Shown here piece after piece: positions 24,678 through 64,000 of a stretch of DNA of 64,000 nucleotides (the first letter of the stretch is position 1; each line of letters opens with the position of its first letter). The notes below the pieces were generated by a model that was not told the origin of the DNA, ran no database searches, and worked only from the letters and a program-made list of their open reading frames with translations. The stretch is from Raja brachyura (lineage: Eukaryota). A program made the position numbers and the translations under genes. The stretch spans positions 62,001-126,000 of the forward strand of contig CAUPSL010000078.1 of the NCBI GenBank assembly GCA_963514005.1, given 5' to 3'.

Positions 24678-25462
24678 GTAAGAAGGAACTGCAGATGTTA
24701 AAATTGAAGGTAGACACTAAATGCTGGAGTAACTCAGCAGGTGAGGCAGCTTCTCTGGAGAGAAGGAATGGGCATCGTTTTGGGTCGAGACCCTTCTTCA
24801 GACTGATGTCAGGGGAGGGACAAAAATAGAATGTAGGCGGAGACAGTAAGACTGGTGGGAGAATTGCAAAGGGGGAGGGGATGGAGAGATAAATCGAGGG
24901 CTATCGAAAGTTATATAAGTCAATGTTCATAACGCTGGAGTGTAGACTGCCCAAGCGAAATACGAGGTGCTGTCCCTCCAATTTGTGCTGGGCCTCACTC
25001 TGACAATCGAGGAGGCCCAGGACAGAAAGGTCAGATTGGGAATGGGAGGGGGAATTGAAGTGTTGAGCCACCAGGAGATCAGGTAGGATAAGGCGGACTG
25101 AGCGGAGGTGTTCAGCAAAACGTTCGCCGAGCCTGCGCTTGGTCTCGCTGATGTAGAGAAGTTGACAACTGAAACAGCAGATACAGTAGATGAGGTTGGG
25201 GGAGGAGCAAGTGAACCTCTGCCTCACCTGGAAGGACTTTGGGTTCATGGATGTAGTTGAGGGGGGAGGTAAAGGAACGGGTGTTGCATTTCCTGCGGAT
25301 GCAGGAGAAAGTATCTGGGGAGGGGGTGGTTTGGGTACGAAGGGACGAGTTGACCAGGGAGTTTCGGAGGGAATGATCTCTGGGGAAAGCAGAAAGTGGT
25401 GGAGATGGGAAGATGTGGCTAGTAGTCGGATCCTGTTGCAGGTGGCGAAAATGTTGGAGGCT
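24678..25462 (-). mobile_element. Penelope-like element 3' part: GIY-YIG endonuclease plus terminal repeat
   Basis: FQVRQRFTCSSPNLIYCICC..LYISETKRRLGERFAEH..VAQHFNSPSHS..RLGSL, followed by the tctgaagaagggtctcgaccc terminal repeat. Confidence 0.88.
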
Positions 25463-25699
25463 GTACTTACTATTAAAGTCCTTACTTTTCATCATGTCTT
25501 TCTTGGTGAAACCAAATGCAACTACTATTTGTTTCGTACCTCGCCTCCGTCCACAAACACCAAGCACATATTCGCTGCTACATGTTTAAGCAATCCCACC
25601 TTCTCCCTCGTGTTTTGGTGCAATGGCTGCCTCGCCAAAACTCTGCCTGTCCCTTCCTTCTTTGTGTCGGTTTTGTATGTATTGAATGTATGTTCTTTA

Positions 25700-26025
25700 T
25701 GGGCCTGTCCCACTTGGTGATTTTTTTAGGCAACTGCCGGCAACTGTCATAGTTATAGCAGGTCGACGAAAAACCAGTGACAATCTACGTCATCCTGGCG
25801 ACAACCTACGACAGCACCTATGTCAGGAGAAGTTAAGCTCTGCTCAATGGAGTCAAACCCATTGTCGCTGTAAAATTTTCAACATGTTCAAAATTTAGCG
25901 GTGAGCAGAAAGACACTACAACGTTTTCCGTGACTGAGACTACCCCCGGCGACCACCGGTGAGCATGTGGCAATAAACTAGTCACCTGCAGTTGCCTGAA
26001 AAATCGCCTAAGTGGGACAGGCCCA
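25700..26025. mobile_element. PIF/Harbinger-type MITE
   Basis: Perfect 16-bp TIR TGGGCCTGTCCCACTT / AAGTGGGACAGGCCCA. TTA TSD at 25697-25699 and 26026-26028. Confidence 0.85.
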
Positions 26026-27817
26026 TTAGTGTTCTTTAGCTTGTTTTGCGTGGGGGTTGGGGGATGGAGGAAACTTTTTCTAATCTCTTACCTCGATGTA
26101 GATGCGATTTTTTTTCCGTATCGTATCTCCGGCCACACTGGGGCCTAACACCGAGGTGTTGGCAGCCTTTGCTTTTTTTTTTTAAGTGTGACTGTATTGT
26201 AATCTGAATTTCATTCCACCTTAATTGGTACATGTGACAATAAATTGACCTTGAAACCTTGAAAATGATGTGGGATTTTCTGTAATCCGACTCGCCAAAG
26301 CCACTTTGTGGCCTCTATTGGCCATTTTAGTTTTAAGCTTTAGAGATACAGCGCAGAAACAGGCCCTTCAGCCCACACTAGGGACAATTTACATTTATTC
26401 TAAGCCGATTTACCTACATACCTGTACGTCTTTGGAGTGTGGGAGGAAACCGAAGATCTCGGAGAAAACCCACGTAGTCATGGGGAGAGCGTACAAACTC
26501 CTTACAGGTAGCACCCGTAGTCAGGATCAAAGGCGGGTCTCCAACGCTGCAGGTGCTGCAAGGCAGCAACTCTCCAGCTGTGCCACCCTCTACTCACCCA
26601 CTCGAGTTATTCCCTCCTTTCTTTACATTCCTCAAAGCTCCTGCCTGATTCCATCCTCCTGAACCTTACATGCACTTTCTTTTTGTTTCATTCTAATTAA
26701 ATTTACCACCTGTTTGGTTATGCAAGCTTTCATTCCTTTGCCATTCTCGTCCTTCCTCACAGTGGAACTGGTGATCAAATAACTCATACATAAGTCATGG
26801 GAGTCACGGTAACATTTATGTCATTTCTATGACATCCATAAAGACCAAACCCTGGAAGACTTGATGCTGAAAAATCAAATTAACATAACATTTTAATGTT
26901 TGAAATGTTCAAACGTCCTTCTCTACAATTAAACAAAGTGCGGGAGTAACTCAGTGGGTCGGACAATCCTGGGTGAGAAGATTCTAGTCCTCAAGGTAAA
27001 ACACTTGGACACGTGGACAATGCCTGGAGATGTATCTCCAACCAGGACCATTGTGTCTCTGCAGTCAGGACTCCTACAGGTTGGACCAATATTAAGGTGC
27101 CAATATTAGTCGAATATATTTAGACTACCTTTTAAGAGTTTAAGGTTTGAAGAGTCCCAACCCAGAATTACCAATCCATGTTCTCCAGCGATGTTGCTGC
27201 ACCCATCGAGTTGCTCCAGCACTGACACAATTTACAAGCACAGCAACACCCCAGTTACATAAAATACCCATTATATTTCACAAGTGTTCTCCCAAACTTG
27301 TTGCCCGATGCTCTTCACGTGGACATTTAAACGTAATGATATAAACAAACATTCAGTGGGCATTGTAACATATGCATCTCCATTCCACCTGTGCTTATAA
27401 TGCAGAATACGTCCTACTTTCAATGGGATTTTCTGCCAATAATATAAACCACCTGATTGCCACATGCATGAAGTCAACACAATTCAAGAAAGACACAAGA
27501 TAGACACCAGAAGCTGGAGTCACTCAGCATCTCAGGTGAAAAGGAATGTGACATGTTGGTGGCAGGTGTGAAGGAGGTCTCAACCAGAAACATCACCTAT
27601 TCCCTTTCTCCAGACTTGCTGACTGACCCACTGAGTGACTCCAGCTTTTTGTGTTAATCTTCGGTTTCAATCAGCATCCGCAGTTCCTTCCTAAAATTAA
27701 GAAAGACACAAAGTGTTGGGGTAACTCAGCCGGTCAGGCATCATCTCTGGATAATGCACAGGCTACGATCTTTAGGTCCATCTGCTTGCCGTTTCCTAGG
27801 AAACTGTTCCTGATTAA

Positions 27818-27888
27818 CCTGTTCAGTGCCACCCCCGGGTATACTCGGGTCATGGCCAATAGTGAAATAAAACGTGGCAGTCAACAGG
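27818..27888. mobile_element. 71-bp piggyBac-like mini-element
   Basis: TTAA|CCTGTTCAGTGCCAC...GTGGCAGTCAACAGG|CTAA. TIR 13/15, with TTAA/CTAA flanks. Confidence 0.6.
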
Positions 27889-27908
27889 CTAACAAGGTGT
27901 GGACAGAG

Positions 27909-28602
27909 TGTGGGGACTTCAGTGCAAGTTTTTGATCCAAGACCAGGTGAGAGAGAGGGGGAAGACAGAGGGGGGAGAGAGAAGGGGGAGAGAGAGAAGA
28001 GGGGAAACGGGAGCGTGGGGTTCATTTTCCCCACACAAGCCATAGGTGACTGGGTGATCTGAACCCAAGCACCAAGTTGAAAGCGGCCGAAGGTGCGCAC
28101 CCCTCGGTTCAGCCCCCACTGTCCCACGACCACCCTCCGCGGGCTGCGGGTCGGATGGAGCCGAGATGTGGGACAATGTTCATCCGTTCACAGTGTTGTG
28201 ATGGACGCGGGGGTCTGGACCAATCACTGACAAGTCCCGCCCCCGGCAACGTCAAGACCGTTATTGGACTTATCTGTTGAGCGGTAGTCGGTCCTTTAGC
28301 TTGGAGGTGAAGCCGCCTTTCGGGTAGGTGGCGTTTCGACAGAGCGGCCATTCGGTAAGTTTGCTTTTGGTGATGCAGCTTTTAGGCTCGTTGGCTTTTA
28401 GGCGTCTCACCCTTTTGGTTACTTTGTGTTTAGGTGTCCCATCCTTTCGGTTAGAAGGGGTTTCGTCTTCGTATTCATTCGGTTTATTGGCGTTTCGGCC
28501 CCATTTCTATTCGGTTATTTGGCTTCGACGTCTTTGCTTCAGCTTCTCGTCCATCGGTGCCACGTCCGGGTACCGGACCAAGGGTCCGGTAGCATCTCCA
28601 CA
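27909..28602. mobile_element. Probable CpG-rich solo LTR (694 bp)
   Basis: TGTGGGG...CTCCACA termini. 5-bp flanks cagag / cagtg (4/5). Internal CCAAT and GC boxes around 28220-28267. Confidence 0.55.
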
Positions 28603-29811
28603 CAGTGAGAGGGAGCTGTGTTACCCCGTCTACTTTGCTCCTGCTTCCCAAAGAGGAACATGGGAGGACGAGGAGCATGACATGGACAATGGAAGCATGG
28701 AAACAGGCACTTCGGCCCAGCCAGTCCGCACTGACCAGTGATACCCGCACATTAACATTATCCCACACACACTAGGGACAATTTATATTCATATAAAGCC
28801 AATTAGCCTACAAACCTGTATGTCTTTCAAGTGTGGGAGGAAACCAAGATCTCTGAGAAACCTCATGCGGTCACGTGGAAAAAGTACAACCTCCATACAG
28901 ACAGCAGGCTTGTACCTTGGTCTATGGCACTTTGAGGCAGCAATATGTTTACAAAAGTTGGAAGAATTATGCCTGCAGCAGAAACACCACTGCAGAATCC
29001 CAACCTGATCCTATCTTATGGATGGCTCTTCCTATCAGAGAACGTGGAATTAAGATGAAAGGAAAGAAACCCTGGATCTATGCCCCAGGTGTGAAATAAG
29101 CTCATATTTGTTACAAGGACAATTATTTCGTATAGGTTAGAGATAAAGCATGAAAACAGTCCCTTCAGCCCACTGTACCCACATTGACCAGCCATCTCTG
29201 TACATCAGCACAATCCTACATACGAGGTGCAATCTACAATTTTTACCGAAGCCAATTAACCTACAAACATGTGTGTCTTTGGAGTGTTGGAGGAAACTGG
29301 AGCACCCAGAGAAAACCCTCACATTCACAGCGAAAACGTACAAACTCCGTACTGACAGCACCTGGAGTCAGGATCAAACCCAGGTCTCTGGAGCTGTGAA
29401 GCAGCAGCTCCACCGCTGTGCCACCATGCTACCCTGTTGTCATTAGTATTGTGTGCTGAAATGTTTCCATCAGTGATTATGGCAACTCTCTCCAAACCTC
29501 TATACATTTTCAGTAGACCAAGCAGTTCCTCCTTCCACCTTATGAGGCTGAATTATTGGATGGCTGAACTCTTTGGGAACCTCCTTAGTGCAAGTTTGAT
29601 TTAGTTTAGTTTAGAGATACAGTGCAGAAACAGGCCCTTCAGCCCACGGAGTCTGCACCAACCAGTGATCCCAACACATTAACAATATCCTACACGCACT
29701 GGGGACTATTTACATTTATACCGAGCCAATTAACCTACAAACCTGTACGCCTTTGGAGCGTGTGTGGAAACTGAAGATAGCGGAGAAAACCCACACAGAT
29801 CACGATGAGAA

Positions 29812-30385
29812 TGTGAATGTAAATCTTGAATCAACACTGTAAAATGGTTCTGTGAAGGGAAAATGGAGGTCAGGTGAACTGGGTTGAAACTTAAAATGTC
29901 TGCTGACCAAAGTTGCTGACTATGTGGCTGCAGGTTTCAGGAAGTTGCGATCCTGAGAAATACACATTATCCTGCTGATGCTGATCTGCTGATCGCAACT
30001 TTGATATTCCTCGCACCCGTCTGATTGAGGTGGCTGATTTTCAGAAGGCTGAAGAATATGCAAACCACTGGCTCCCGAAAGTCTGAGAAATGTCCCTGTC
30101 TTAGCTCTAGTGTTGTTCCACTAATTAACATCTCCCATTGTGTACGTGCCTGTTATCATGACCATTGTGTACAGGTCTGTTGGTTAATTGGGTAATGTGG
30201 GAGGGGGCTAAACGGTGGCATTAACATATATCAAGCATTGCAATTAAGGGCAGAGAGCTTGACTCTTTGCTAGGTTGTTAACCTGTGTGGAGACTCCTGC
30301 TCAATAAACGTACGTTTAAAGTGACCCCGGTGCCTGGTCGATTATTGACGAAACAACCGATGTGAGAGAAAAACGTGAATCAACA
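29812..30385 (+). mobile_element. Solo LTR (574 bp) inserted into a SINE
   Basis: TG...CA ends, 4-bp TSD AGAA (29808-29811 / 30386-30389), AATAAA at 30303-30308. The flanks rejoin to the SINE sequence gagaacgtacaaactcc. Confidence 0.85.
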
Positions 30386-31800: not shown

Positions 31801-31854
31801 TGACGTTCTGCTGTTTAAATTACCGTTTTTTTCCACTGACCTTTCTTTCACCCC

Positions 31855-33811: not shown

Positions 33812-34493
33812 AACCCCTGTCCCACTTACTTGTCCTTGACACGCTAATTAAGCGACCTCGTGGTCGCGTGGAGGCGCTACGATCCCGCGAAGGTCGCGTG
33901 CGACTTCATACGCCTGCACAGCCGTCTGGAGCGCGTGACATCATATGAAGATGGACACCAAATGCTGGAGTTACTCAACGGGACCGGCAGCATCTCTGGA
34001 GAGAGGCAATGGGTGATGTTTCGGGTCGAGACTCATCTTCAGTCTGAAAGAAGGGTCTTGACCCGAAACGTCATCCATTCCTTCTCTCCAGAGATGCTGC
34101 CAGTCCCGCCGAGTTATTCCAGCATTTTGTGTCGATCTTCAATTTTCTTGGCCCCGCTCTGGAAGTAGAAGTGGGGGCGGATCCGGACCGCAACGGCCGT
34201 GAGCCGCAGGCCGAGCTCGGCGTTCGTTTGCCTGCTTCTGCTGCTGCTGGAGGTGAGACGTTGCGTCACGCCAGGGTCTTGGGCCTGTCCCACTTTGGCC
34301 GTCAGTTACGCGACAGGCCGGTGGCGCGCAAAGATTTCATTTGCTACAAAATTTCAGAGCGCATACAACTACATACCCCTCCGCGGCTCTCATTGGGACC
34401 GGCCCCGCGCGGCCATTGGATGCCCGTGCGCATCAACGCGACGACGAGGTCGGGTAATTTGCTTGCCAAGGACACGCAAGTGGGACAGGCCCT
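33812..34493. mobile_element. Harbinger-type MITE inserted in a SINE and itself carrying a palindromic Penelope-terminal repeat
   Basis: TTA|AACCCCTGTCCCACTT...AAGTGGGACAGGCCCT|TTA. Same TIR family as 25700-26025. A right-end-only copy lies at about 32234-32518. Confidence 0.75.
33954..34133. repeat. ~180-bp palindrome: two head-to-head copies of the Penelope-terminal repeat
   Basis: gacaccaaatgctggagttactc...cttcag|tctgaa...gagttattccagcattttgtgtc; arms are reverse-complementary. Confidence 0.85.
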
Positions 34494-34579
34494 TTATACT
34501 CCACACAGGCTGCACTGGAGATGATTGAACCCGGATCACTGGAGCTGTGAGGCAGCAGGGCTCTTTGCTACAAAAGCAG

Positions 34580-36048: not shown

Positions 36049-39000
36049 CTAGACACAAATAAAAGAATACAATTATTGTCAAGCAATAGACATTTCTATG
36101 GATAGGAAAGGTTTGGAGGTAAACCGGCAAAACACCAATTGGACTTAATTTGCACTAAACATGATACCCTTTATCCTGTATCTATATATTGTGAACGGCT
36201 TCATTGTAATGTAGTATTTTCACTGACTGGATAGCACACACAAAACATTTTCACGTGACATTAATAATAAATTAAATTAAGCTAAAATATAGGTAGGTGG
36301 GTCAAGGTTAGATGGGGCATCTTGGCCGGCATAGATAAGGTGGGCTGAAGGGCCTGTTTCTATGCTGTATATGATTCTAAATGTCAAGCTAACTTAGATT
36401 ATTTTAGTTTAGCTTAGACATACAGTGTGGAAACAGGCCCTTGAGCACGAGTCCGCACATTAACACTATCCTACACACGAAGGACAATTTACATTTATAT
36501 CAAGCCAATTAACCTACAAACCTGTACGTCTTTGGAGTGTGGGAGGAAACTGAAGATCTTGGAGAAAACCCACACTGGTCATGGGGAGAACGTACAAACT
36601 CCCTACAGACAGCACCCATAGTCAGGATCGGACCTGGGGCTCTGGCACTTTAAGGCAGCAACTCTATCACAGCCCCACTGTGCTGCCCTTACTGATCAAC
36701 ATTTGGAAATGATATGATATTCAGATATTCCACCCACAAAGGTGAGTCACGGCAGTTATTTGGTTCCCAGGCCACCATTTATTACTCCATGTGTCATTAA
36801 ATAGTAAAATCTAGGGGTGGGTATTGGAAATATCAGGAAGATAAAAATAGATCAGGTCCCAAAAAGGTTAGCATGGACTTAGTGGGTCAAAGGGCTTGTT
36901 TCTGTGCTGCACTCTCTATGCTGCACTGTCAATTAGTTGCATCACATCATATTTATGTCGTAACCTGCATTTGATTAGTCTAACAAGGGTTCATTCACTT
37001 GTGTGTCAGACGACATGTAGCTCGCCGTTGACTACTGTCGTCATCCAACATGTTGACAGAATTGCTCGCCCGACACGTCACAGAGTGCATCGTGTCGTCG
37101 GTTCCGGGGATCGCCACGAGGAGGCTTCTGTCACGATTCCACACAAAAGGGTGACGGTGGAACAACAGTAGAGTTACTGCCTTACAGCACAAGAGACTGC
37201 CAGGTACAATCCTGACCATGGGTGCTGTCTGTATGGAGTTTTTACATTCTACCTGTGGGCTTTCCCTGGGTGCTCCAGTTCCCTCCCACACTCCAAAGAC
37301 GAGTTTGTAGTTTAATAGGCTTTGGTAAAGATTATAAATTGTTGCAAGTCCATAGGATATTGCTACTGTACGGGGATCGCTGTTCAACGTGGACTTGGTG
37401 GGCTGAAGAGCCTGTTCCCATGCTATATCTCTATATCATCTTGAGCTGTAATATACAGTAGGCTGGCCAAATCGGCTTGCACCATGACACTACATCAAGA
37501 GCAGATTCCAAACATATCAATGTAACATTTAACTTCTGCTTTGATATGACCTCCTGGTGACTTTCTGATAGTTCACCACATCCCCCTTTGTCAGCGAGTT
37601 CCTCTATCATCTCACAGGCTGGCCCCCACATTCACACATCCTCAAATACCACACATTTCCTGTTCGACTAGTTTTTTAACTGTTTACTCTCACAGTCTGC
37701 CCTGTGAACATGCAGAAATTAACATCACAAATAAATCAGGATTGAACAACTCATTATCAACCTTAGACACTAAGTGCTAAAGTAACTCAGCAAGACCGCA
37801 GCATCTGTGGAGAAAAAGACTGGATGGCACTTTGTGTCAGGACCCTACTTCAGTCTCATGCAGGGTTAGTCTGAAGAAGGTTCCCAAACCCAACGCATCA
37901 GTCTGAAGAAGGGCCCCAACCTGAAGCTTCACCCAGCATCACCCATCCTTTTTCTACAGAGATGCTGTCTGACCCGTTGAGTTACACCAGCATTTTGTGA
38001 CACACTTTGGTACAAACCAGCATCTGCAGTTCGTTGTTTCTACATCATTATCTATCTCTTTGAGAAGGCGTTCCCATAGAATTAGCATCCTAACAAAATA
38101 AGATCACACAAAGTTACCAATAAGGGTGGCACAGTGGTAGAGTTGCTGCCTTTACAGTGTTTGCAGTGCGAGAGACCTGGTTTCAATCCTGACTATGGAT
38201 ACTGTCTGTATGGAGTTAGTACGTTCTCCCCGTGACCTGCGTGGATTTTCGCCGAGATCTTCGATTTCCTCCCACACTTTAAAGACGTGCAGGAATGTAG
38301 GTTAACTGGCTTGATGCACGTGTCAAATTGGCCCTCGTGTCCATAGGATAGTGTTAGTGTGCGGGTTAGTCGCTGGCCGGTGCAGACTTGGTGGGCCGAA
38401 AGGCCTGCTTCCATGCTGTATAGCTAAACTAGAAAAACTAAAGAACCTATTTTACATATCTCACTTCCTTTGGTTCAGGCAGTGTTCTCTCAGGTGAAGC
38501 CTGCTTGATAGTAATTTTCAGTGCTTATTCTGGCTGATAGAGATAGCAACATGAAAACCACAGAAATAATCTTTAAAAAACTGAATCATGCAGCATATAA
38601 ACAGGCCCTTTTGCCCAATCTTGTCTATGCTGACCGAGATGCTTATCTACAATTACATGAATTATGCCCTTATCCCTCCCTGACTTTCCTACCAAAAGCC
38701 CAAATGTTGTATAGACATTGTGGTTATATCTGCCTCTACCATCTCCCCTGCAGCTCATTCCAGATAACTACTGCAGTGAGAAACATCTGCTCAGAACCCC
38801 TTGACATTTCTCTCCCATCACGTTAAAACTCCAGTTCTAGTCTCCACTGCCCTGGGAAAGAGGCAGTTACTCTCTATACTATCTATACCCCAAAGATAGA
38901 CACAAAATGCTGGAGTAACTCAGCAGGGTAGGCAGTACTTCTGGAGAGAAGGAATGGATAATGTTTAGAAATGTCACTCATTCCTTCTCTCCAGTGATGC

Positions 39001-39534
39001 TGCCTGTCCTGCTGAGTTGCTCCAGCATTTTATGTCTGTCTCCTGTGTAAACCAGCATCTGTTGAACCTTCCTGAAGAAGGGTCAAAACCTGAATAAAAA
39101 GGGTCTTGAGCCGAAATGTCACTAATTCCTTCTCTCCAGTGATGCTGCCTGTCCCACTGAGTTACTCCAGGTTTTTGTGTATTTCTTTGGTTTAAACCAG
39201 CATCTGCATATCCTTCCGACACTACCTATAGCCCTCATTATCTCACTCCTGCATTCCAGTGAGAATAAATGCAGCCTATCCAATCTCTTCACATAACCAC
39301 ACACCTTTATTCCAGGCAACAACCTGGCAAAACCCTTCTGCACTATTCATCACATCCTTTTTAGTTTAGAGATACATTGCAGAAACAGGCCCTTCGGCCC
39401 ACAGCCGACCAGTGATCCCCACACAGTAACGTTAGTACTGGAACGACCACAACTCTAAACAATACTCCATGTGCAGCCTAACCAATGTTTTGTTTGATTT
39501 CTCAACTCATATACTTGATGACTGAGTCTATTCA

Positions 39535-40052: not shown

Positions 40053-41226
40053 TAAGCGGACAAATATGCCAAAGTGCATTCTTTGCTTTCCTGTCTACCC
40101 TTGTTGGCATTTTTACGTAACTTATGAACTTGCAACCCAAAGACACTCTGTACATTAACACCCCTCAGGTTCTGACCTTTTATGTCCTACCAGAACATGA
40201 CATGATGATGCACACAACTTCACACATGTCCAGATTACATTTATTCTGCGATTGCTCCATCCAGCTCTCAAGATAATCTGTATCTCACTGTATCCATAGA
40301 CAACCTTATTCAATGTTTATGAATCCATCAATGTACATGTCATCTGCAAACCTAGTAATCAAACCACCTATATTCACATCCACATCATATATACTATGCA
40401 CTGCAAAACACAAAGGGCTGCAGGGACGCTGCAGGTCAGGTAATAACTGGAGCAATGTTTTCCACTCAGCACGTACTCCTGCAGTCTAGAATGGACAGAT
40501 GATGTTTTGGGTCAGACACTTCTTCAGACTGACTGTGATAGAAAGCTGAAAAAGAGAGGTGGGGCTGGGACAAAGCCTGACAAGTGATACAGGTGATAAG
40601 ACATAAAATGCTGGAGCAACTCAGCGGGCCAGGCAGCATCCCTGGAGAGAAGGAATGGGTGACATTTTAGGTCAAGATTCTTCATCAGACTAGTTGGGGA
40701 TAAGGGAAACAAGAGATATAGACAATGATGTAGAGAGGTAAAGAACAATGAATGAAAGATATGCAAAAAAGTAACGATGATAAGGGAAACAGGCCATTGT
40801 AAGCTATGGGTTGGGTGAAAACGAGAAGCTGGTGCGACTTGAGAACAGATTTGATAAGTAGATGGGTGGAGTAAGTGGCAACGGCTAGAGGTGAAAAGGT
40901 GACAAAGGGTCTGAAGATGGGTCTCGACCAGAAACATCACCCATTCCTTCTCTCCAGAGATACTACCTGTCTCGCTGAGTTACTCCAGCTTTTTGTGTCT
41001 ATCTTCGGTTTAAACCAGCATCTGCAGTCCCTTCTTACACAAGAGACAAAGGGTGTCAGGTAAGGAGATAAGAGGAGTGAAATGTAAAGCCAGATGAAGG
41101 GCCAAAGGTGGAAGGAGACAAGGGGGTGGGGGGGGGGGAGTAGAAAGATAGGGTATAAAAGTGCAATGAGAGAATTGAGGAGGGGAGATGCATAAACAAA
41201 GGGAAAAGGAACTGAGTGATTGGGAG

Positions 41227-41516: not shown

Positions 41517-42561
41517 ATTGGGAGAGTGGGTGGTAATGGGAGAAATAGGTGAATAGGTGCATGTCAGGGTGGACAGGAAAGAGCGGGTGTTGGTGGGGGG
41601 GGGGGGGGGGGGGGAGGGGGGGGGGATGGGATGAAGGGGAGGGTATTGCCTCAAATTGAACAATTCAATGTTGATATCATTGCACTGTAAGCTATCCAAG
41701 TAGAACATCGAGTGCTGTTCCTCTAGATTTCATGTGTCCTCACTCTGGCAATGGCAGAAGCTAAAGACAGGATGGTTGGTCTGGTACTGGGAAGGGGAGT
41801 TGAAAGGTTAGGAGCTGGGAGATCCAGCGGGCATTGACAGACAGAATGCAAGTGCTTTTTAAATGGTCGTCCAGTCTATGCCGATGCAAAAGAGGCTGCT
41901 TTGGGACACAGAAAGTGGTAGATGCCTGGAACACACTCTCAGGAGAGGTGGATGCAGATGCTACAGCACAATATATGTGGATAAGCATTCACACACATGA
42001 ACAGGCAGGAAATAGAGGGGTATAGACCACATGGTGACGTGGAATTAATGTAAATAGGGTCTGAAAAAGGGTCTCGACCAGAAACATCACCCAGAAACAG
42101 AGATGCTGCCTGTCCCGCTGAGTTGCTCCAGCTTTTTGTGTCTATGTTCTGTTTTAACCAGCTTCAGCAGTTCCTTCCTGTACATCCTGCCTTGTGCATC
42201 ATTGTTCTGTGTTTACAAATACAGTGTAAATAAAACCTGGCATCCTGTGTACCATTTAAATCAATTATGATTGATGTATGTTTTTATTCCACGTAATCCT
42301 ACAAAGTATCCCACAAATACACCACTCAGTGGCAGCATTCAGTGGATGGTGGCTGAGGTAAGGCAACGATCAACTAGTTCATGGATCACATTTGTTTTCT
42401 GTTGACATTGTCCTTTACAATTTAATTTAACAATTATTTTTAATCTTTTTTCCCCAAGTTACTGAACGTTTTCCACAGGAAGTACTTTTTTATGGCCCAT
42501 TCTAGTGAGAATATTGCTGATTGAAAAACAAGGAAACTGTTCCAGTGGGCAGCATTATTAT

Positions 42562-49336: not shown

Positions 49337-49341
<5 letters not shown>

Positions 49342-49408: not shown

Positions 49409-49410
<2 letters not shown>

Positions 49411-51099: not shown

Positions 51100-53098
51100 A
51101 AAGTGCAGAATTTGGATGTTCAGCCCATCGAGTTTACTCCACAATTTAATCATGGCTGACCTATCGTTCCCTCTCAACGCCATTCTCCTGTCATCTCCCT
51201 GTGACCTTTGACACTCTTAGAAATCTGGCGACATGGTGGCGTTTTCCGGGTTTGTATTCCAGTCCTCTTGATATAAATCATCTTCCTGACTACCGGTTCA
51301 ATTTGCAAATTAACCTTTTGGGAGTCCTGCACCAACACTCCCAAGTCACTTTGCTCCTCCGATTTCTGGATTCTATCTCCTTTGCAAAATAATCTACGCC
51401 TTTACTCTTATTACCAAAACGCATGTCTCCACACTTTGCTATGCTGAATTTCATCTGCCACTTCTCTGCCCACTCTCCCAACCTGTACACGTTCACGTTA
51501 CTGGAGTAGAATTAGGCCATTCGGCCATCGAGTCTACTCCACCATTCGATTATGGCTGATCTGTGCCTCCTAATCCCATTTTCCTGCCTTCTCCCAATGT
51601 TAACCCGTTCTAATCAACAATGTGTCGATCTCTGCCTTAAAAATATCCACCAACGTGGCTTCCACTGCCCTCTGTGGCAATGAGTTCCACAGATTAACTA
51701 CCCTCTGATGAAAGAAATCCCTCCTCACCTCCTTTCTAAAAGAGCACCCTTTAATTCTGCGGCTATGACCTCTGGTACTAGACTCACCCACCAGTGGAAA
51801 CATCCTTTCCACATCCACTCTATCTTTGCTTTTCATTATTCTGTAAATTTCAATGAGGTTCCCCCCTCAACCTTCTCAACTCCAGCGAGTAGAGGCCCAG
51901 TTCTGTCAAACGCTCATCATATGCTAACCCACTCATTCATGGAATCATTCTTGTAAACCTCCTCTGAACCAGAACCAGCACATCCTTCCTCAGATAGGGG
52001 GCCCCAAATTTGCACACTGTACTCCAAATGTGGCCTAATCAGCACTTTTGGAGCCTCAGAATGACATCTCTGTTTTTTGTATTCCAGTCCTCTTGATTTA
52101 AATCACCTTCCTGACTACCGATTCAATTTGCAAATTAACTTTTTGGAAATCCAACACCAACACTCCCATGTCACTGTGCACCTCAGATTTCTGGATTATC
52201 CCTCCATTGGTAAAATAATCTACGCCTTTATTGTTATTACCAAAATGCACGTCTCCACACTTTGCTATACTGAATTTCATCTGCCACCTCTCTGCCCACC
52301 TCTATACTGAATTTCACCTGCCACCTCTCTGCCCAAATCCTTCTGCAAAGCTCTTGCTTCCTCTACACTGCCTGTCCCTCCACCTATTTTAGCATCAACT
52401 GCAAACCTGGCCACAAAACATTCTATCCCCTTATCCAAATCATTAATAAACCACATAAACATGATGACTGCATGTTTGGAGCTAAGAGTTTTCGCTCAGT
52501 AAATAGCAAAATCCGCAGTGTGTGACACATTCCAGAAAATTAGTCAAGCATGATTTCCCTTTCAAAAATCCATGTTGACGGACTAATCATTTTACTGCTA
52601 TCCAAATGCCCCATTATTACCTCTTTAATAATTGACTCCAGCACCTCTCCCACCATCGAAGTCAGACTAACTAGTTTGTAATTCCCCGTTTTCTCTCTCG
52701 CTCCTTTCTTGAAAAGTGGGATAACATTAGCTATCCCCCAAACCACAGGAGCTGATCCTGAATCTATTGAACATTGGAAAATGATCACCAATGCGTCCAC
52801 TATTTCCAGAGCCACCTCCCTGAGGACCCTGGGATGCAGACCATCAGGCCCAGGGGATTTATCATCCTTCAGTCCCATTAGCCTACCCAATACTATTTCT
52901 CGCCTAATGAAAATGTATTTCAATTCCTCTACCCCCTTAGGCCCTCTGTCCTCCAGTACATCTGGGAGATTGTTTGTGTTTTCTTTAGTGAAGACAGATC
53001 CAAAGTACCTATTCAACTCCTCTGCCATTTCCTTGTTGCCCATACTAATTTCACCTGTGTCAACCTTCAAGAGACCCACATTTGACTTTGCTAATCTT
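51100..53098 (-). mobile_element. Cluster of CR1-type LINE ORF2 fragments
   Basis: KSPGPDGLHPRVLREVA..ANVIPLFKKG..NYKLVSLTS; FINDLD..ARFAVDAK; WAEKWQMKFSIAKC; RVVNLWNSLP. Confidence 0.9.
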
Positions 53099-53198
53099 TA
53101 GTGACTGTGCTAATCTTTTCCTGATTTTGCATTGTACTCATGCCTCTCTCTCTTCCGACATTTGGCCATAAACTTGAACCTGTCAAACAAGGCACTTT

Positions 53199-54120
53199 GT
53201 GTAGGAAAGAACTGCAGATGCTAGTTTAACTCGAAGGTAGACACAAAATGCTGGAGTACTCAGCAGGCAGGCAGCATCTCTGGAGAGAAGGAATGGGCGA
53301 CCTATCAGGTCGAGGCCCTTCTTCAGACTGATGTCAGGGGAGTGGATGGGACAAAGAAAGAATGTAAGCGATGACAGTAAGACTGGTGGGAGAACTGGGA
53401 AGGGGGAGGGGATAGAGAGGGAAAGCAAGGGCTATTTAAAGTTGGAGAGGTCAATGTTCATGCCGCCTAGTTGTAAACTACCCAAGCAAAATATGAGGTG
53501 CTATTCCTCCAATTTGCACTGGGCCTCACACTGACAATGGAGGCGGCCCAGGACAGAAAGGTCAGATTGGGAATGGGAGGAGAGGTTGAAGTGCTGAACA
53601 ACCAGGAGATCAGGTAGGTTAAGATGGACTGAGCAGAGTAGTTCAGCAAAATGATTGCCGAGCCTGCGCTTGGCCTCGCTGATGTAGAGAGGTTGCCACA
53701 TGCAACTGCGGATACAGTAGATGAGGTTGGAGGAGGTGCAAGTGAACCTCTGCCTCACCTGGAAAGACTGTTTGGGTCCTTGGTTGGAGTCGAGGAGGGA
53801 GGGAAAAGGACACGTGTTGCATCTCCTACGGTTGCAGGGGAAAGTACCTGGGGAGGGGGCGGTTTGGGTGGAAAAGGACGCGTTGACCAGGGAATGTCGG
53901 AGGGAACGTCTCCACTGAAAGCAAAAATGGGTGGGAATGGGAAGATGTGGCCAGTAGTGGGATCCTGTTGGAGGTGGCAAAAATGATGGAGGATTATATG
54001 CTGTGTGCGACGGCTGATGGAGTGGAAGGCGAGGACAAGGGGGACTCTGTCCTTGTCACGAATGGGGGGGGGGGGGGGGGGGCGGGAGAGCAAGAGCGGA
54101 GCATCGAGGAAACCCTAGTG
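53199..54120 (-). mobile_element. Penelope-like element 3' part: GIY-YIG endonuclease plus terminal repeat
   Basis: DRVPLVLAFH..QQDPTT..PGTFPCNRRRCNTC..FTCTSSNLIYCIRS..LYISEAKRRLG..QHFN. Confidence 0.9.
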
Positions 54121-54442: not shown

Positions 54443-54498
54443 TTCACGCACAAACTCCCGCATCAACAGCAGCAACTGAGCCAAACTTCACCAACCCC

Positions 54499-54533
54499 AG
54501 TCTGAAGAAGGGTCTCGACCCGAAACGTCGCCT
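54499..54533 (+). ncRNA. Putative minimal type-I hammerhead ribozyme motif within a Penelope-terminal repeat
   Basis: CTGAAGA (54502-54508), A, stem II GGGT-CTCG-ACCC, GAAAC (54522-54526), GTC triplet (54527-54529). Stem I is weak (2 bp) in this copy. Confidence 0.55.
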
Positions 54534-54645
54534 ATCTCCTTCACTCCTTAGATGCTGCTGCACCCGCTGAGTTTCTCCAGCTTTTTGTGTAACCTTCACC
54601 AACATCAACATCAGCTTCACCAACATCAAAGCAGGATCTCATCAT

Positions 54646-54700: not shown

Positions 54701-57700
54701 ACAAGCACAAAACAATTGACTGCAATGGAGGCACGAGGAGGTGTTGATGCCTATTTACAACAAAGACAAATACACAAAGTGCTGGTGTAACTCAGCAGGT
54801 CAGTTCGCAACTCCGGAGATCATAGATTGGCGGCGATAGACACAAAGCACTGGATTAACTCAATGAATCGAGCAGCATATTTGGAGAAAAAGGATAGGTG
54901 ACTATTGTCAGTCTGAAGTAGGTTCCCAATCTGAAACAGCGCCTGTCAATGTCCTCCAGAGATGTTGCCCGACCTGCTGAGTTACTACAGCACTTTGTTT
55001 TTTTCGCACTCTATAGCAAATGGAATGGAATGGAATTGCAGGGCGTGGTCGCCTGGAACTGTAATTACGTTTCAGATATCGCCCCATTCTTCAGCTGCTA
55101 ATTGCTCCTAATGTTATTTTATGATTCAGGAGACCCATAAATCCAATCACTTGTCCTAACTTGAATCATTACAATGCAGAACAAAAAGGAGGAAATCAAA
55201 CACGGTCCACAGCTAGTAGAGCTGCCGCCTCACTCACAACACCAGAGACCAGCGTTAGATCCGGACCTCTCGCATTGTCTGTGTAGATTGTCTTTAACAA
55301 AGAACTGCAGATGCTGGAAAAATCGAAGGTAGACAAAAATGCAGGAGAAACTCAGTGGGTGAGGAGGCATCTATGGAGCTAAGGAAGAGGCAACGTTTCG
55401 GATCAGACGCTCCAAGAATGGTCTCGACCCGAAACGCCACCTATTCCTTCACTCCGTAGATGCCTCCTCACCTGCTGAGTTTCTCCAGCATTTTTGTCCA
55501 CCTTCCGCATAGATTTTGCTCATTCTTCTTGTGACCGCCTGGGTTCTTCCCGGTGCTCCGGTTTTCTCCCACATTCCACAGATGTGTGGGTTTGTCAGTT
55601 AATTGTCCTCTGTAAATTTCCCCTAGTGTGTGTGGGGCTTGGACAAAAAAGTGGGATAACATTGAACTAGTGTGAAGGGGTGACCTGTGGTCAGCATGAT
55701 GGGCTGAAGGGCCTGTGTCCATGTTGCATCTTTCAACTCAAAACGGAATTCTGTAAAGACGTTATATTGGAAGCTAGTTTGGACATTGAAACTGTGCAGC
55801 GCATGGTGGTGGATATCGACGGCAATGGTGTCTGTGAATTTATCAAGGACCTATCTACCAGATATGGGGAGAACTTACACAATAGCATTGGTATTGATTT
55901 ATTATTGTCACGTATTGAGATACAGTGAAAAGCTTTTGTTTGCGTGCTAACCAAATCAGATCAGGAATGACTGAGGGATTGTACTAAATGACAGGGCAGG
56001 CTTGTGGGCCTGTTTCAATGCAATAAACTCCATATTAATGTACCATATTAAGAATGCGGGTGCTGGTATGCTTGGTGATGAGCCCAAAATATTGATTTTG
56101 TAATTCAAGATTTCCTCAGTGTCGCAACAGTAGAGTTGGTGTTCATAGCAACGGCGACTCGGGACGTTTCTGACTAATGGTGCTGTCTGTACAGTGTTTG
56201 TACGTTCTCCCTGTGACTGTGATGTTTTTCTCTGGGTGCTCCAGTTTCCTCCCACATCTCAAAGAAGTACAGGGTTTTATGTTAATTGGCTTTGGTAAAA
56301 TTGTAAATTGTCACTTGTCGTGCTATAGTACTAGTGTACGGGGGTCAGCGAGGACTCAGTGGGCCAAGGGCCTGTTTCCGTGCTGTACCTCTAAATTAAA
56401 AATGTTAATTTCTATTCATTTTAATTTTCAGCTCTTAACCAAATTCATTTCAATCAACCCAAAGATGACTGTGTTTCTCCCTCACAACACCAGATTTAAG
56501 TCTGCATTTAAAAAATGCTTTTATTTTTGCTCGCATAGTGCTGAACTAATTCACTTATGTTACTGAAGTTATAACTCACAGCAGTGACCACAGTAAGCAA
56601 GATACATCAAATACATGAACACAAGAAACGGGAAGCAGGAATAGGCCCACAAGTCACTGGCGGAACTAGTCCTAACCAATAATACATCATACATGAGTCC
56701 AATCACAGACAAGTAAGAATGTAATGATTGTAGTGGGTAATTGTAGAGATCACAAGGAAAATAAAGCATTTGTTGGCCATGAGTAAAATCTGTTCTGCAG
56801 CTCAATTAGGTCATGACTGATCTACTCTTGACCAGAAGAGTCTGTAACCAGTAACCCACAACTTCCCAAAAAAACAAATCCATCCTTCTCAGTAATGTAA
56901 TGAATCTACACTCTGCAGTTGAAAATTCCCACGATTCATTATCGTCTGGGAGAAATATAAAACACTTTTCTCCTCAGTTTGAACCCTTGGCCTCCAATGT
57001 CTAGTTTCCTCCATGATGGGAACTATTGAGAACAGGAGGAAATAGCTTACTACTGTTCTATCAGCCCATAGAGTAGTCACTAAACTTGTCGCACCGTTCA
57101 ATAAAATGATCACTGATCAGTTGGCCTCAGATCCTTAGATTAGTTTGGTTTAGAGGTACAGCATGGAAACAGGCCCTTAGGCCCATCCAGTCTGTCCAGA
57201 CCAGTGATCCCTGCAAACTAATGCTGTCCTACATACACTTGGGGCTAATTAACCTGCAAACCTGTACATCTTTGGAGTGCTGGGGGAAGCTGGAGCCACC
57301 AGAGATAACCCACACAGGTCAAGGGAAGAATGTACTAACTCCATACATACAGCCCCCATGGTCAGGATCACAATGTTCCCCTGGTCTCTGCCACTGCAAG
57401 GTAGCAATCTATCGCTGTTCCTCCGTGCCACCCCTTGCGTCACTGTGCCACCTACACAGTTCTATCCTATACACATGGGACAATTTACAGATGCCAATTA
57501 ACCTACAGACCTGCAGGCCTTTGGAACTGGGAGGAAACCGAAGCACCAGGGGAAAACCAATATGATTACAGATAGAACATACAAAGTTGGTACAGACAGC
57601 ACCCATAGTCAGGATGAAACCTCAGATTCAGATTCAATTTTAATTGAATCAGTTGGGTCACAGAGTCACAGGGACTGCAAGGAAGTAACTCCACTGCTGT

Positions 57701-59957
57701 GCCACTGTGAGGCTCCACTGTTTGAAATGTTGGTTGCAAGTTCTAACTTTTTTCATGAGGGTTATCGTCAAGGACACAAGAAAAAATAACAGGAGTAGAC
57801 TAGGAAGTAGTCTCCTCTGGTCCATTGCCCCTTAACTCTCAATTGCTTCAATCTTTCAAAGATTTCTCTATCTGGTCTTAAACATATTTAATGCCTTGGC
57901 TATCACCACCTCTGAGCACAGAATTACAGCAATTCACTCCCTTCTGAAAGAAGTAATTTTGATGTACCTCAAATTTAAACAACTGGTCCCTTATTCTGTA
58001 GTTGTTTCCCATTGTTTTTAGACTTTCCCACCAGTGAAACATCTCAACATCTATCATGAAAAGCCCCTTAAGATATTGCGTGTGTGAATAAGGTCACTCA
58101 TCACTTTCTACACTCCAAGGTATGCGGACCTAAACTGTTTACCACTCTTGATGAGACAACCTTTTCATCCCTTGACTTAGTTTGATGAATTTCATCTGGT
58201 CTGCATCCAATGCTCCTATCCCCTTTTTAATGTTAAAACTGTGTGCGGTATTCCAGTTATTGACTCAATATAATCATCCTGCATAATTCCAATATTACAT
58301 CCCTATTCTTGAATTCCATCCCCCTTTGCAGTAAAGACTGCATTTTTTCCATTGGTTATTGGGTCTGCTGCTAACTATTTTTGATGCATGCACTTGAATA
58401 CCAACATCCCATCCGAACTTCACTCATTTACAGTCTCTCTCCATTTGGACAATAATCCACCATTTAAGGTTTAGCTTCAGGTTTGTTATTGTGATGTATA
58501 CCAAAGTACGATAAAAAGCATTGTTTTTGATGCTGTATACATAAATACTATCAAGCCAAACACAAGTACAATAGGCAGACTGAAGGATAAGATACAGAGT
58601 GAAGAATAGAGCTCACAACATTATTGTACAACAATTTCAGAGACAAAATCCAATGGCCATGTTGATGTAGAGGAGAATTGGGAATGGGTTCTAGCACATG
58701 GAACATTCAGAAGCCTAATAACAGAGGAGAAGAAGCTGTTCCTCTGTCTGGTGCTCTACACTTTTAAGCTCTGCATCTTCTGCCTGACGGGAGTAGAGAA
58801 AAAAGGAATCACTAGTGTGAGGAAGGTTTTTGACTATGTTGGCTACCTTCCTGAAGCAGCAGGAATTGTAACTGGAGACAATGATGGGCAGTCTGGTCTG
58901 TGTGATGGACTGGGCTACATCCACATCTCTCTGCAATTTCTTGTGGTCTTGCGCAGAGCTATTCTGAAAATAAGCTCTGACGTAGCCTTTCTATGGTGCA
59001 TCTGTGGAAGTAGGTAAGAGTCATTGGACACATACTAAATGTCCTCAGTCATCTGAGGAAGTGGATGCATTGGTGTGCCTTCTTGGCTGTCCCTTCAATG
59101 TGGTTGATCTATCAAGGTTCGTTGGTAATATTTACACCAAAGAATTTGAAGTTCTCAACCATTTCTACTTTGGCACCATTGATACTGATTGGGGCATGCT
59201 AACTTGATTCCTCATGCCAAAGAGCATGAGTTGAAACATCACCCATTCATTCTACCTAGAGATGCTGCTTGTCCTGCTAAGTTACTCCAGCATTTTGTGT
59301 CTATCTTCAGTGTGAAACAGCATCTGCAGTTCCTTCCCACACAATTTGTCTGCTCCAATAGGAGATCTCCTCAAGATCCTCAACTGCCTGAAATGTCACC
59401 CATTCCTTCTATCTAGAGATGCTGCCTGTCCCGCTGAGTTACGCCAGCATTTTGTGTTTATCTTCAGCATGTCCTCACAGTTTCCCACATTAAACACATT
59501 AGCCAGGTTTTGACTAACCACTCAAGCTATCTATATCCTGTTGTAGAATCATACTTTCCTCATTAAACCGTGCCATTTCATCTATTTTTGTATCATTGCC
59601 AAAACTGAGTCCTTACATTTGTTCCCTGCACCAATTAGTTGAGGGGAGCACTGAGAGAAGTATGTAAAATCATGAATGGCATGGATAGGTTTGGCTCCCG
59701 TCTGGTAGAAGGTGCAGAAGATTGAAGGCACGTACCACCAGCTTCAGCGACAGCTTCTTCCCCTCTGTTATCTGGCTTCTGAACAGTTTTTCCATAGGTT
59801 ATGGTTAGTCTGATTTACCTCTATCCACCAAGATCATTGGTCTTTCTCTCTGGAACTGATGCACTACAATGCTGAGATCGATATTCTGCATAATATTCTT
59901 CCCCTTTGAATTAATTATATCAGTGTATGGTTTATCTAATCTGTTTGGATAGCATGG

Positions 59958-60480
59958 CATGCTTTGGTCCTTGGATGAAGTCAAGGGGGGAGGTCAACTG
60001 CTCTACATCGGTGAGAACAAGCACAGGCTTGGCGATCGCTTCACCCAACACCTTCGCATTAACCAACCTGAACTCCCAGTGGCTCAGTACTTCAACTCCC
60101 CCTCCCATTCCGAATCCGACCTTTCTGGCCTGGGCCTCCTCCATGGCCAGAGTGCGGCCAACTGCAAATTGGAGGAGCAGCACCTCATTTTTCGCTTGGA
60201 TAGTTTACACCCCAGCGGTATGAAAATTAACTTCTCTAATTTCAGGTAATCCTTGCTTTCTCCCTCCTTCCCCTCCCGTTCCAAGCTCTCCCACAGCCTA
60301 CTGTCTCCACCTCTTCCTTTCTTCTTCCTGCCCCCCCCACCCCCACATCAGTCTGAAGAAGGGTCTCAACCCAAAATGTTACCTATTCCTTTGCTCCGTA
60401 GATGCTGCCTCACCCACGGAGTTTCTCCAGCAGTTTTGTCTACCTTCGATTTTTCCAGCATCTGCAGCTCTTTCTTAAAC
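59958..60480 (+). mobile_element. Penelope-like element 3' end (GIY-YIG C-terminus plus terminal repeat)
   Basis: LLYIGENKHRLGDRFTQHLR..PVAQYFNSPSHS..KLEEQHLIFRL..NFSNFR*, then cagtctgaagaagggtctcaaccc. Confidence 0.85.
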
Positions 60481-60871
60481 ATGTACTTGTTCTTTGTACT
60501 TTTCCTGAGTATATGGTGGGGTAATATGGAGTGTGCTTCACCCAAGATCAAATGTGAGGTAAGAGTCATTTAATTGTCATATGTATCAACAATGGAACAA
60601 CACAATTCTTACTTGCTGCAGCTTCACCTGAATGTAACTGCAATAACACAGAGATAATATAAAACAACCAATAAAACAATGAATTAATAACTGGACTATC
60701 ATAATAGAGCACAACATAAAATTCATAGTACATTCAATGACAGTCCGTATATGGTCATAGGTGCTGATGTTAGTTTTGTTTGGTGTTGAAGTGATTGTTG
60801 AGAAGAGGCTGTTCTTGAATCTGGTTGTCACAGTTTTAAGGCTGCTGTATATTTCCCTATATCTATACTTA

Positions 60872-61181
60872 GGGACGGCAGTGTGGCGCAGCGGTAGAGT
60901 TGCTGCCTTATAGCACCAGACATCTTGGTTCGTTCATGACTTATGGGTGAAGCCTGTACGGAGTTTGTATGTTGGGTGAATGCATTGTTTTTCTCCAGGT
61001 GCTCCAGTTTCCTAACACACTCCAAAGACATACAGGTTTGTAGGTTAATTGGCTTGTAAATTGTAAATTGTTCCTAATGTGTGTAGGATAGTGGCAATGT
61101 AAAGGGATCATTAATCGTCGCAAACTTGGTAGGCCGAAAGGCCTGTTTCCTCGCTGTATCTCTAAACTAAACTAAACTAAA
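60872..61181 (+). mobile_element. tRNA-derived SINE (HE1/V-SINE-like)
   Basis: ggcagtgtggcgcagcggtagagttgctgcc..(ctaaa)4 tail. Confidence 0.85.
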
Positions 61182-61189
61182 TCTGCTCT

Positions 61190-62214
61190 TTTTTTCCCCT
61201 ACAAAATGCTTTTATTCAGAACAAACAAATACAATGTAGTAACACGATCAGAGAATGCCTATATTGGCATTTTACAAAGTTATCAAATTAAAATATTAAC
61301 ATTTTGATCAATAATACATTCGACCTCCTGCGGTGACCAGCGTTCACGGAAGGCCTCCACAGTCCCTGTGGACACCGCGTGTTCCCTCTCCAGGGATACG
61401 CGAGCACGGACGTAACCCCGGAAAAGGGCAGGCAGTCGACTGCTGTGCGGACGTCGACTGCCCGCTGCCTGGACCCGCGAATGGCCATCTTGGCCAGGCC
61501 CAGGAGCAGACCGACAGGGAGACCCCCTCCTCCCTCCCGACCATCCCCCCTCTGTACAGGGTGCCCAAAAATCAATAGCATCGGACTAGTGGAGCCAAAA
61601 CACTAGTCCGAACACGGTCTCTTCCTCGCCGCAGAAGTAACAGGCGGCGGACGAGTCCGTGAACCGGCTCAAGTACCTGTTGCAGGCCACGGCTTCTGCT
61701 CTTTTTTTTTTTTTTTTTTTACAAAATGTTTTAATCAAACAAACAAATACAATTACAAACACAATCAAAAAATGCCTAAACTGGCATCTTACAAAGAAAT
61801 TTCAAATTAAAACATTAACATTTTCATCAATAAAACATTCCACCCCCTGCGGTGACCAGCGCACACAGAAGGCCCCCACAGTCCCTGTGGACACCGCGTT
61901 TTCCCTCTCCAGGGACACGCGGGCACGGACATAACCCCGGAAAAGGGGCAGGCAGTCGACTGCTGTGCGGCCGTCGACTGCCCGCTGCCTGGACCCGCGA
62001 ATGGCCATCTTGGCCAGGCCCAGGAGCAGACCGACAGGGAGACCCCCTCCTCCCTCCCGACCATCCCCCCTCTGTACAGGGTGCCCAAAAATCAATAGCA
62101 TCGGACTAGTGGAGCCAAAACACTAGTCCGAACACGGTCTCTTCCTCGCCGCAGAAGTAACAGGCGGCGGACGAGTCCGTGAACCGGCTCAAGTACCTGT
62201 TGCAGGCCACGGCT
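61190..62214 (-). mobile_element. Tandem pair of 5'-truncated L1/Tx1-clade LINE 3' ends (61190-61694, 61703-62214)
   Basis: C-terminal ACYFCGEEETV zinc-knuckle remnant and LLLGLAKMAI..RWSPQGVEC, followed by polyA tails. The 8-mer TCTGCTCT is at all three junctions. Confidence 0.85.
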
Positions 62215-63282
62215 TCTGCTCTGGGAGTGTGTGTTTGGACAACGCAGACATAGCTTTACTTTGAGTTTTTCTTTTTAAAAGGCAGTACATTGAGGCAGCT
62301 GGCAGAATGGCTGCCCCTCTGCTCCAGCAACTTGGATTCAATACTGATCTCGGGTACTGTGTATCATTTTCATGTTCTCCCTATGACACGTGGATCACCA
62401 CCAAATAGAAACATAGAAACGTAGAAAATAGGTGCAGGAGTAGGCCATTCGTCCCTTCGAGCCTGCGCTGCCATTCAATATGATCATGGCTGATCATCGA
62501 ACTCAGTATCCTGTACCTGCCTTCTCTCCATACCCCCTGATCCTATTAGCTACATGGGCCACATCTAACTCCGTCTTAAATATAGCCAACGAACTGGCCT
62601 CAACTACCTTCTGTGGCAGAGAATTCCACAGATTCACCACATGCGAGTGGTTGGTTAATTGACTGCTGTAAACTACCCAATGTGTAATTGGGTGACGTTG
62701 TCTATGTTTCGTTTAGAGATACAGTGAGAAAACAGACCCTATGTCCCACCGTGTCTGCAACGACCAGCGATCCCCGCATATTAGCTACCCTACACACACT
62801 AGGGGCAATTTTACCTTTTATACCAAGCCAATTAATGTACAAACCTGTATGTCTTTGGAGTGTGAGAGGATACCGATGATCTTGGAGAAAACCTACGCAG
62901 GTCATGGGGAGAATGCACAAACTCCATATAGAAAAGCACCTGTAGTCAGGATTGAACACCAGGTCTCTGGCGCTGTAAAGCAGTAGCCCTACTGCGATGC
63001 CACCATGCCATCCTACAGCAAGGTCCCACATGGGTGGCTGGTCCATTAGGTTGGAACACATGGGATCCAGGGTGAGCTAGTCAATTGGACACAAAGTTGG
63101 CTTGGTGGTAGGAGTCAGAGAATGGTAGTGGAGGGTTGTTTTATTGGAAGCCTGTGACCAGTGGTATGCCTCAGGAGCTGATGCTCTGATGTCATTCAGT
63201 CACACACAGTGCTATCAGACTGATTAATGCTTTCAATTTGCAGAAATGAAAGAGATGTGAGGAAGTGAGATCGAGCTGAGGG

Positions 63283-63382
63283 ATGAGAGATGGAGAGATA
63301 AATAGATGGAGCGAGATAGGGAGATAGAGAGAGAGAGATAGCAAGATGGAGAGAGATGATAGGTAGTGAGGTAGAGAGAGGG
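63283..63382. repeat. Degenerate (GA/GATA) low-complexity repeat
   Basis: Direct reading. Confidence 0.8.
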
Positions 63383-64000
63383 ATAATGTGATCAATACTT
63401 GTTGAGAGCAGAGCTGAAAAAAGGTGAGGTGCCCTTGGGAAACAGGATGTCTGGGGATGGCCATTTTATAAAGGGACTACACTATGAAGCAAAATAGATC
63501 AATGTTAATGGTTCTCAAGCCAGATAAGCAAAAATAAGATGTGTTTTGTTATTTAGTCCCTGGATGAGTGGCAACTTGAATTTCTTGATTTTCTTCTTTT
63601 CAGAGTTCAGACCTTGGATTAGAGTCTATTGTGCAACAAGTTAGTTGAGGCCTAGACAGATTAATGGTTGCCTGTTCAACATTCTGTACAACTGTAACAT
63701 GACACCCCGACTCCAGTCCTCAGTACCATGGCTGATGGAACAAGGCATAACATTTACTCTGTGTAGGAATGAACAGCAGATGCTAATTTAAACCGAAGAT
63801 AGACACAAACAGCTAAAGTAACTCAGCGGGACAGGCAGCATCTCAGGAGAGAAGGAATGGGTGACGTTTCAGGTCGAGGCCATTCTTCAGACATACACTC
63901 CCTCCACTGCCCTATCGAACTATTGTGAGGGATAAAGTGATTAAACCCCACTATTGTACGGATTCAGGTGAAGATTCTAACTTGTAAACAGGATTCTAAC

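Follow-up and report, generated by a model that had tools for sequence, protein, structure and literature searches.

A 64,000-nt stretch of the Raja brachyura genome (contig CAUPSL010000078.1, positions 62,001 to 126,000; hereafter the window) contains a short repeat with a minimal hammerhead ribozyme core, which occurs both behind remnants of Penelope-like elements (PLEs) and without any open reading frame (ORF). This raises the question of whether the solo copies form a family of their own or come from the PLE itself. The original prediction, made from the letters of the window, favored an independent non-autonomous family resembling short interspersed elements (SINEs) or retrozymes. The present analysis points instead to the PLE: the repeat probably belongs to an abundant Neptune-type element, as its terminal repeat and 5' leader, and the solo copies are likely run-off complementary DNAs (cDNAs) of the element's own RNA, with no separate element involved (probability roughly 0.7).

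Under this reading, the reverse transcriptase (RT) would prime inside the RNA at two 3' points, copy backwards through the uncut ribozyme, run off the capped 5' end and add a G. Longer copies would arise solely from read-through RNA of tandem elements, whereas head-to-head pairs would form where two primed ends meet and tandem stutters where the RT re-engages. The ribozyme, with a stem I of 2 bp, would need a dimer or the help of a protein, and likely cuts a very small share of the templates used.

Parent element and abundance

The core sits in the terminal repeat of an element with RT and GIY-YIG domains. Three loci contained tandem units with a core-to-core spacing of 3984-4051 bp, and each unit of ~4 kb was ordered as core, ~66 nt, a 34-nt tail, a first ATG ~135 nt beyond the predicted cut, the RT domain, the CxxxxCxxC linker, GIY-YIG, a 3' untranslated region (UTR) of ~250 nt, and the next core. 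The Pfam matches to RVT_1 and GIY-YIG were weak and below the cut-offs. The linker (CNRKRCYTC) lies ahead of the C-terminal GIY-YIG and agrees with the CX2-5CxxC definition that is common to Neptune and Nematis in the partial text of Craig 2021 (PMC8557442). By this linker, the putative parent would fall among the Neptune-type (Neptune or Nematis) PLEs.

In the 2.7-Gb genome, the 34-nt core had 44,549 exact matches and the 35 nt after the predicted cut had 48,590, compared with 201 for a 35-mer at the ORF start, i.e., ~240 leader matches for each ORF-start match. The original prediction of a very high copy number without the ORF was therefore borne out. Eighteen arbitrarily placed 10-kb pieces contained 63 copies (0-13 each); extrapolated to the genome, this density gives roughly 0.9 million copies, young and old. 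The motif itself was already known; its scale is what is useful, as tens of thousands of near-identical young copies permit base-level mapping of the points where the RT starts and stops. Open questions on PLEs, namely the position of the transcription start relative to the ribozyme, cutting in vivo, and the origin of inverted and tandem structures, thus become testable.

Ends and arrangement of young copies

A total of 106 young copies were picked from the first 3.9 Mb of contig C1 solely by the 35 nt after the cut. Their 5' starts fell mainly at -5 to 0 relative to core position C3 (47 copies) or extended at least 30 nt into the 3' UTR (37 copies), and the others were located at -17 to -6 (5), +2 to +10 (11), +15 to +22 (5), and the cut (1). 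The 3' ends were found at +60 to +70 in 69 copies and at +96 to +106 in 26, centered ~66 and ~101 nt after the predicted cut. Because no gaps were allowed in the extension, the former group includes copies that continue past an indel. These two fixed 3' ends fit the internal RT starts of the element described in the partial text of PMC11167929. Among 80 copies starting near the core, taken from the 106 and from 3'-anchored matches, 52 were solo, 26 were head-to-head, and 2 were tandem; head-to-tail units that each carry a whole hammerhead are thus not the usual form. A target duplication of 8-17 bp flanked 28 of the 52 solos, and one of at least 8 bp was present in 38 of 2652 mismatched flank pairs.

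An independent family amplified from short masters by the PLE enzyme would account for the excess of leader over ORF-start matches, and for the fixed ends with target duplications. The short copies would also carry an internal promoter if the start were their first base, and PLE-derived retrozymes have been reported in vertebrates (bioRxiv 10.64898/2026.07.22.740005, partial text). However, 50 short and 34 UTR-linked young copies had the same majority sequence and similar divergence (1.3 and 1.0%), and several copies that continue into the ORF begin at the same 5' point as the solos. The shared sequence and shared start indicate that what inserted at the solo loci was a short stretch of the parent's leader, and that the solos have no lineage of their own. 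Copies also do not start at the cut and are mostly not tandem, and hence the separate family proposed by the original prediction appears unlikely, although a minority of copies may still derive from short parents. An Rfam scan, in which A and B boxes were not searched for, showed no tRNA, 5S or 7SL RNA over the repeat that could serve as an RNA polymerase III head. Solo PLE ends can pass for SINEs or retrozymes.

An apparent run of extra C before the core in loci L001-L030 was rejected as a selection effect of the query, and no end count includes these loci. Old copies with a start 8 nt ahead of the cut formed a bump that was traced to a 66-bp minisatellite. This dispersed minisatellite, which derives from the same repeat (L163, L171, L174, L184 and L202; e.g., L184:6855-7120), has a unit that begins at GAAAC, stops shortly before the first 3' end and contains neither the CUGANGA box nor stem II. 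Furthermore, the tail is predicted to pair with the sequence 20-30 nt after the cut and to form a long hairpin around the first 3' end (L147:1290-1355; z -1.4, not significant), a candidate RT-binding structure.

The 5' boundary

Genome-wide, 8,695 copies start at G-2 with a non-A base in front. When a retrocopy carries an extra G at its 5' end, this marks a capped template. After inverted, stuttered and UTR-linked copies were dropped, a G lay directly before the first base in 17 of the 28 solos with a G-2 start (expected 32%, p=0.0014) and in 8 of the 13 with an A-3 start (p=0.019), and in several solos the extra G or GG fell outside the target duplication. From these genomic copies we infer a putative transcription start 2-4 nt before the core. 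An internal promoter has been described in Penelope (Schostak 2008, PMC2377424, partial text). Contigs from two related organisms had loose ends at the same boundary, with an RNA status that is guessed and one contig that is probably DNA; these contigs showed no RNA starts or ends and no splice joint.

Rather than transcription starting there, the near-palindromic CAGTCTG could be cut by an endonuclease, halt the RT or act as a splice acceptor, and so set the boundary. The head-to-head pairs (26 of the 80 boundary copies) join at this near-palindrome, a pyrimidine tract with CAG lies upstream of the boundary, and endonuclease resolution has been invoked for the tail (Craig 2021, PMC8557442). 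This explanation is improbable given the enrichment of G before the start, and given that in about half of the solos with a duplication the duplication abuts the start, with no upstream exon between them.

Several points weigh against run-off cDNAs of a capped leader. Both the start site and the cap are predicted from genomic copies, and the extra letters at the 5' junctions are often more than one G and are partly copied from nearby DNA. The boundary follows the pyrimidine tract ending in CAG, and the Penelope of Drosophila virilis has an intron whose end lies at the 5' side of helix I (PMC4209133, partial text); a splice-related 5' end is thus conceivable. In addition, the 106 young copies come from a single contig, and in all three long units the ORF was interrupted. 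A literature search, with subscription papers, Repbase and Dfam outside its reach, returned no paper on the 5' boundary or on this repeat family.

If full-length insertions recombined between their two terminal repeats, one repeat would likewise remain inside a target duplication, and such recombination partly accounts for the solo terminal repeats (pLTRs) of a rotifer (PMC3846280), but it is a very remote explanation here, as >99% of the bodies would have to be lost via repeats of only 100 bp while the copies are still ~1% diverged, and it yields neither head-to-head pairs nor stutters.

The hammerhead core

A structural descriptor (CUGANGA, GAAA and NUH with stem II and a palindromic 15.2-16.2) gave 109 matches in 0.98 Mb, all of them in this repeat, compared with 1-2 in shuffled sequences. 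In the window it found a single intact core, which exactly matched the one predicted at 54502-54529 (+) and has its predicted cut after 54529. This core belongs to a young solo copy (54497-54594, +) that consists of the 5' boundary, the core, and ~65 nt up to the first 3' end; the copy is flanked by a 10-bp target-site duplication, CTTCACCAAC (left copy 54486-54495, right copy ~54594-54603). Stem II and the loopless ACGT stem III were found as predicted.

Stem I is shorter than had been claimed for two copies. The element encodes just 2 bp (U-G or U-A, then G-C), and the third position was paired in 18 of 198 copies. At 40907, the apparent 4-bp stem I (GGGT) of an older tailed solo copy (40905-41044, +) comes from the host, whose 10-bp target duplication, GACAAAGGGT, flanks the copy on both sides and supplies the GGGT with its end. 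At 42057, in an older solo copy with an internal deletion and a broken core (42055-42185, +), it probably reflects an added G; a duplication was looked for at this copy and not found.

Stem II was invariant among five subfamilies (each with at least 13 copies) and showed no compensatory change; because of this invariance, the subfamilies offer no covariation. Across ~250 copies, two-sided changes numbered 0-3 per pair, and a single one-sided change occurred at the first stem I pair. Variable columns among the subfamilies amounted to 1 of 28 in the core and 19 of 61 downstream (p=0.003), which indicates that the source elements kept the core, although this conservation could also serve a promoter or a protein site. 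The inserted copies showed no clear protection of the core, with divergences of core and flank of 0.063 and 0.083 in old copies (p=0.06) and 0.009 and 0.013 in young copies (p=0.2).

Covariance models gave no support, as an Rfam scan returned no hammerhead family at E<=1. The folding prediction for the monomer gave no hammerhead (z=0.35), and a dimer with stems II and III reached -12.7 kcal/mol, whereas the best fold reached -19.7 kcal/mol. Cutting at the GUC that lies upstream, whose C is C3, was rejected as an alternative: no stem I is possible there, and GT is kept in most copies. Published minimal hammerhead ribozymes (min-HHRs) cleave poorly, and do so as dimers or with protein (PMC11167929, PMC4209133, both partial texts). 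Overall, the repeat matches the PLE minimal hammerhead in the testable features of its sequence, which supports the minimal type I identity proposed at the outset, and cleavage is predicted.

Cut-site ends and tandem arrays

For a test of cleavage, copies were collected at five offsets from the cut if none of the three bases upstream agreed with the element. The raw counts (50 at -3, 46 at -1, 182 at 0, 107 at +1, and 182 at +3) showed no peak specific to the cut, as they consist mostly of inverted junctions and deletions. When the first 30 loci per set were screened for element sequence upstream, 8, 7, 9, 3 and 2 in the same order had none, which scales genome-wide to ~33, 24, 124, 24 and 25. 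Clean 5' ends at the cut were 4.5-fold more frequent than at the four neighboring offsets (binomial p=0.0008), an excess of ~100 of the 48,590 copies (0.2%).

Three separate loci of the cut set were arrays of 61-63-bp units that run from the cut to the first RT start, and in one of these all four units start at the cut, within a 15-bp duplication. Arrays of this unit length starting exactly at the predicted cut were located at L217-L221, L223-L226 and L239-L240. The control loci contained none (0 of 120); two at +3 were junctions to ORF-start sequence. Together, the cut-site ends and the arrays hint at rare self-cleavage in ~0.2% of the templates. Against this interpretation of the excess stand the small numbers and a rule that was fixed after looking at the loci; one of the nine clean loci is the first unit of an array, and TCA precedes four of them. 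The same pattern could result from pausing or jumping at the stem I junction.

Arrays of another kind were present at L003 (1250-1600) and L030, where each 40-42 nt unit contains a whole hammerhead core and the junctions are uneven; at L003, seven units lie within one target duplication. The same jump was seen in contigs of two relatives. Owing to the uneven junctions inside one target duplication, arrays of the L003 type suit RT stutter more than circular RNA.

A wider proposal, to which we give somewhat less than even odds, is that the genome preserves a record of PLE RNA ends. In that case, the hammerhead would form the first 31 nt of the capped transcript, ~0.2% of the templates would have self-cleaved in vivo before they were copied, and re-engagement of the RT at RNA 5' ends would build tandem arrays in one step, providing a direct route from a PLE to retrozyme-like repeats. 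If true, this would provide what the literature, as represented by partial texts, reports as lacking: evidence that a metazoan PLE minimal hammerhead cleaves in vivo.

Comparison with known systems

The comparisons below refer to partial texts of the publications. The min-HHRs of metazoan PLE pLTRs (PMC4209133; Cervera and De la Pena 2014) resemble the core described here in CUGANGA, one extra base before stem II, G10.1-C11.1, GAAA, the absence of loop III, and the palindromic 15.2-16.2, and they are mostly single dispersed motifs linked to truncated PLEs. On the other hand, stem I is 2 bp here (as in D. virilis) compared with 4-5 bp in that study, and stem II is 4-5 bp compared with 7-8 bp. 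The 44,549 exact cores belong to one sequence family, whereas those genomes contained thousands of heterogeneous motifs.

Poseidon PAc of Anolis (Frangieh 2024, PMC11167929) has two internal RT starts that flank its tail; its ribozyme is protein-assisted, and uncut RNA is the dominant RT substrate. In both PAc and the repeat, the hammerhead lies a short way upstream of two fixed 3' ends, one on either side of a 30-40 nt tail, and uncut RNA would be the template here as well. In contrast to PAc, where the ORF starts inside stem II, the ORF start is ~135 nt after the cut, and the CxxxxCxxC linker (Neptune or Nematis type) is unlike that of Poseidon PAc. A sharp 5' boundary at the core, as found here, is not described in the portion of the PAc text consulted.

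Neptune-type endonuclease-bearing (EN+) PLEs (Craig 2021, PMC8557442) share the RT, the CX2-5CxxC linker and the C-terminal GIY-YIG, as well as 5' truncation, partial tandems, inverted copies and an optional tail. Unlike those elements, the insertions here are not restricted to microsatellites and have 8-17 bp duplications. The animal non-LTR retrozymes (bioRxiv 10.64898/2026.07.22.740005) are likewise non-coding, PLE-derived and equipped with a type I hammerhead, and a few arrays such as L003 would probably meet their tandem definition; however, the bulk of the copies here is single or inverted and identical to the parent's end.

Copies and host genes in the window

A profile built from eight real copies matched 50 copies in the window (27 on the + strand and 23 on the - strand; span 4198-63894) and none in 10 shuffles of it. 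All twelve solo positions listed by the original prediction were among them. Four GIY-YIG remnants (13.3-13.6, 24.9-25.5, 53.4-54.1, and 60.0-60.2 kb) precede the repeat in sense, three at the loci named before and a fourth, older one (13348-13648, +) followed by a weak copy (13814-13882; whole feature 13348-13882). The decayed linker and GIY-YIG remnant at 24907-25459 (-) is followed by a tailed terminal repeat at 24671-24810 (-), that at 53438-54057 (-; linker CxxxxCxxC) by one at 53194-53335 (-), and the decayed GIY-YIG remnant at 59995-60243 (+) by one at 60345-60484 (+). The motif described for these three trailing copies is intact in none of them, as each has core changes.

Two head-to-head inverted pairs were present. 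The pair at 33944-34145 is joined at the 5' boundary and has one inserted base in its + core, and the pair at 38885-39081 is without most of the core. Further copies in the span are located at 7139, 7474, 20403, 27564, 33356, 37896, 39096, 44487, 44871, 45330, 49003, 54908 and 63756.

The suggestion that copies sense to host pre-mRNAs could cut them gained no support. A Pfam search of 142 ORFs in the window identified a single-exon rhodopsin-family G-protein-coupled receptor (GPCR) frame of 369 aa (7484-8593, +), just after a masked stretch, and the alpha2 (23656-23988, -) and alpha3 (22410-22754, -) exons of a major histocompatibility complex (MHC) class I gene. The same search detected no MHC alpha1 exon, no other host exon, and none near the only intact core. 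The 24.7-kb copy lies on the MHC strand and is broken, with G12 and GUC lost, and no hammerhead fold is predicted for the monomer. Strand bias was considered as a sign of purging from transcripts and rejected, as neighboring intact cores were on the same strand in 37 of 64 pairs, close to half; this is a weak test without gene models.

A fragment at 52540-53097 (-) adjoins the 53-kb PLE remnant and had no Pfam match; we take it to be an RT fragment resembling those of long interspersed elements. Contig C25 contains four close relatives of the decayed PLE at 53.5 kb (L062-L065; 83-87% protein identity). Near-identical partners of the odd copy at 54908 occur on the same contig (L062-L065), which together suggests a duplicated segment.

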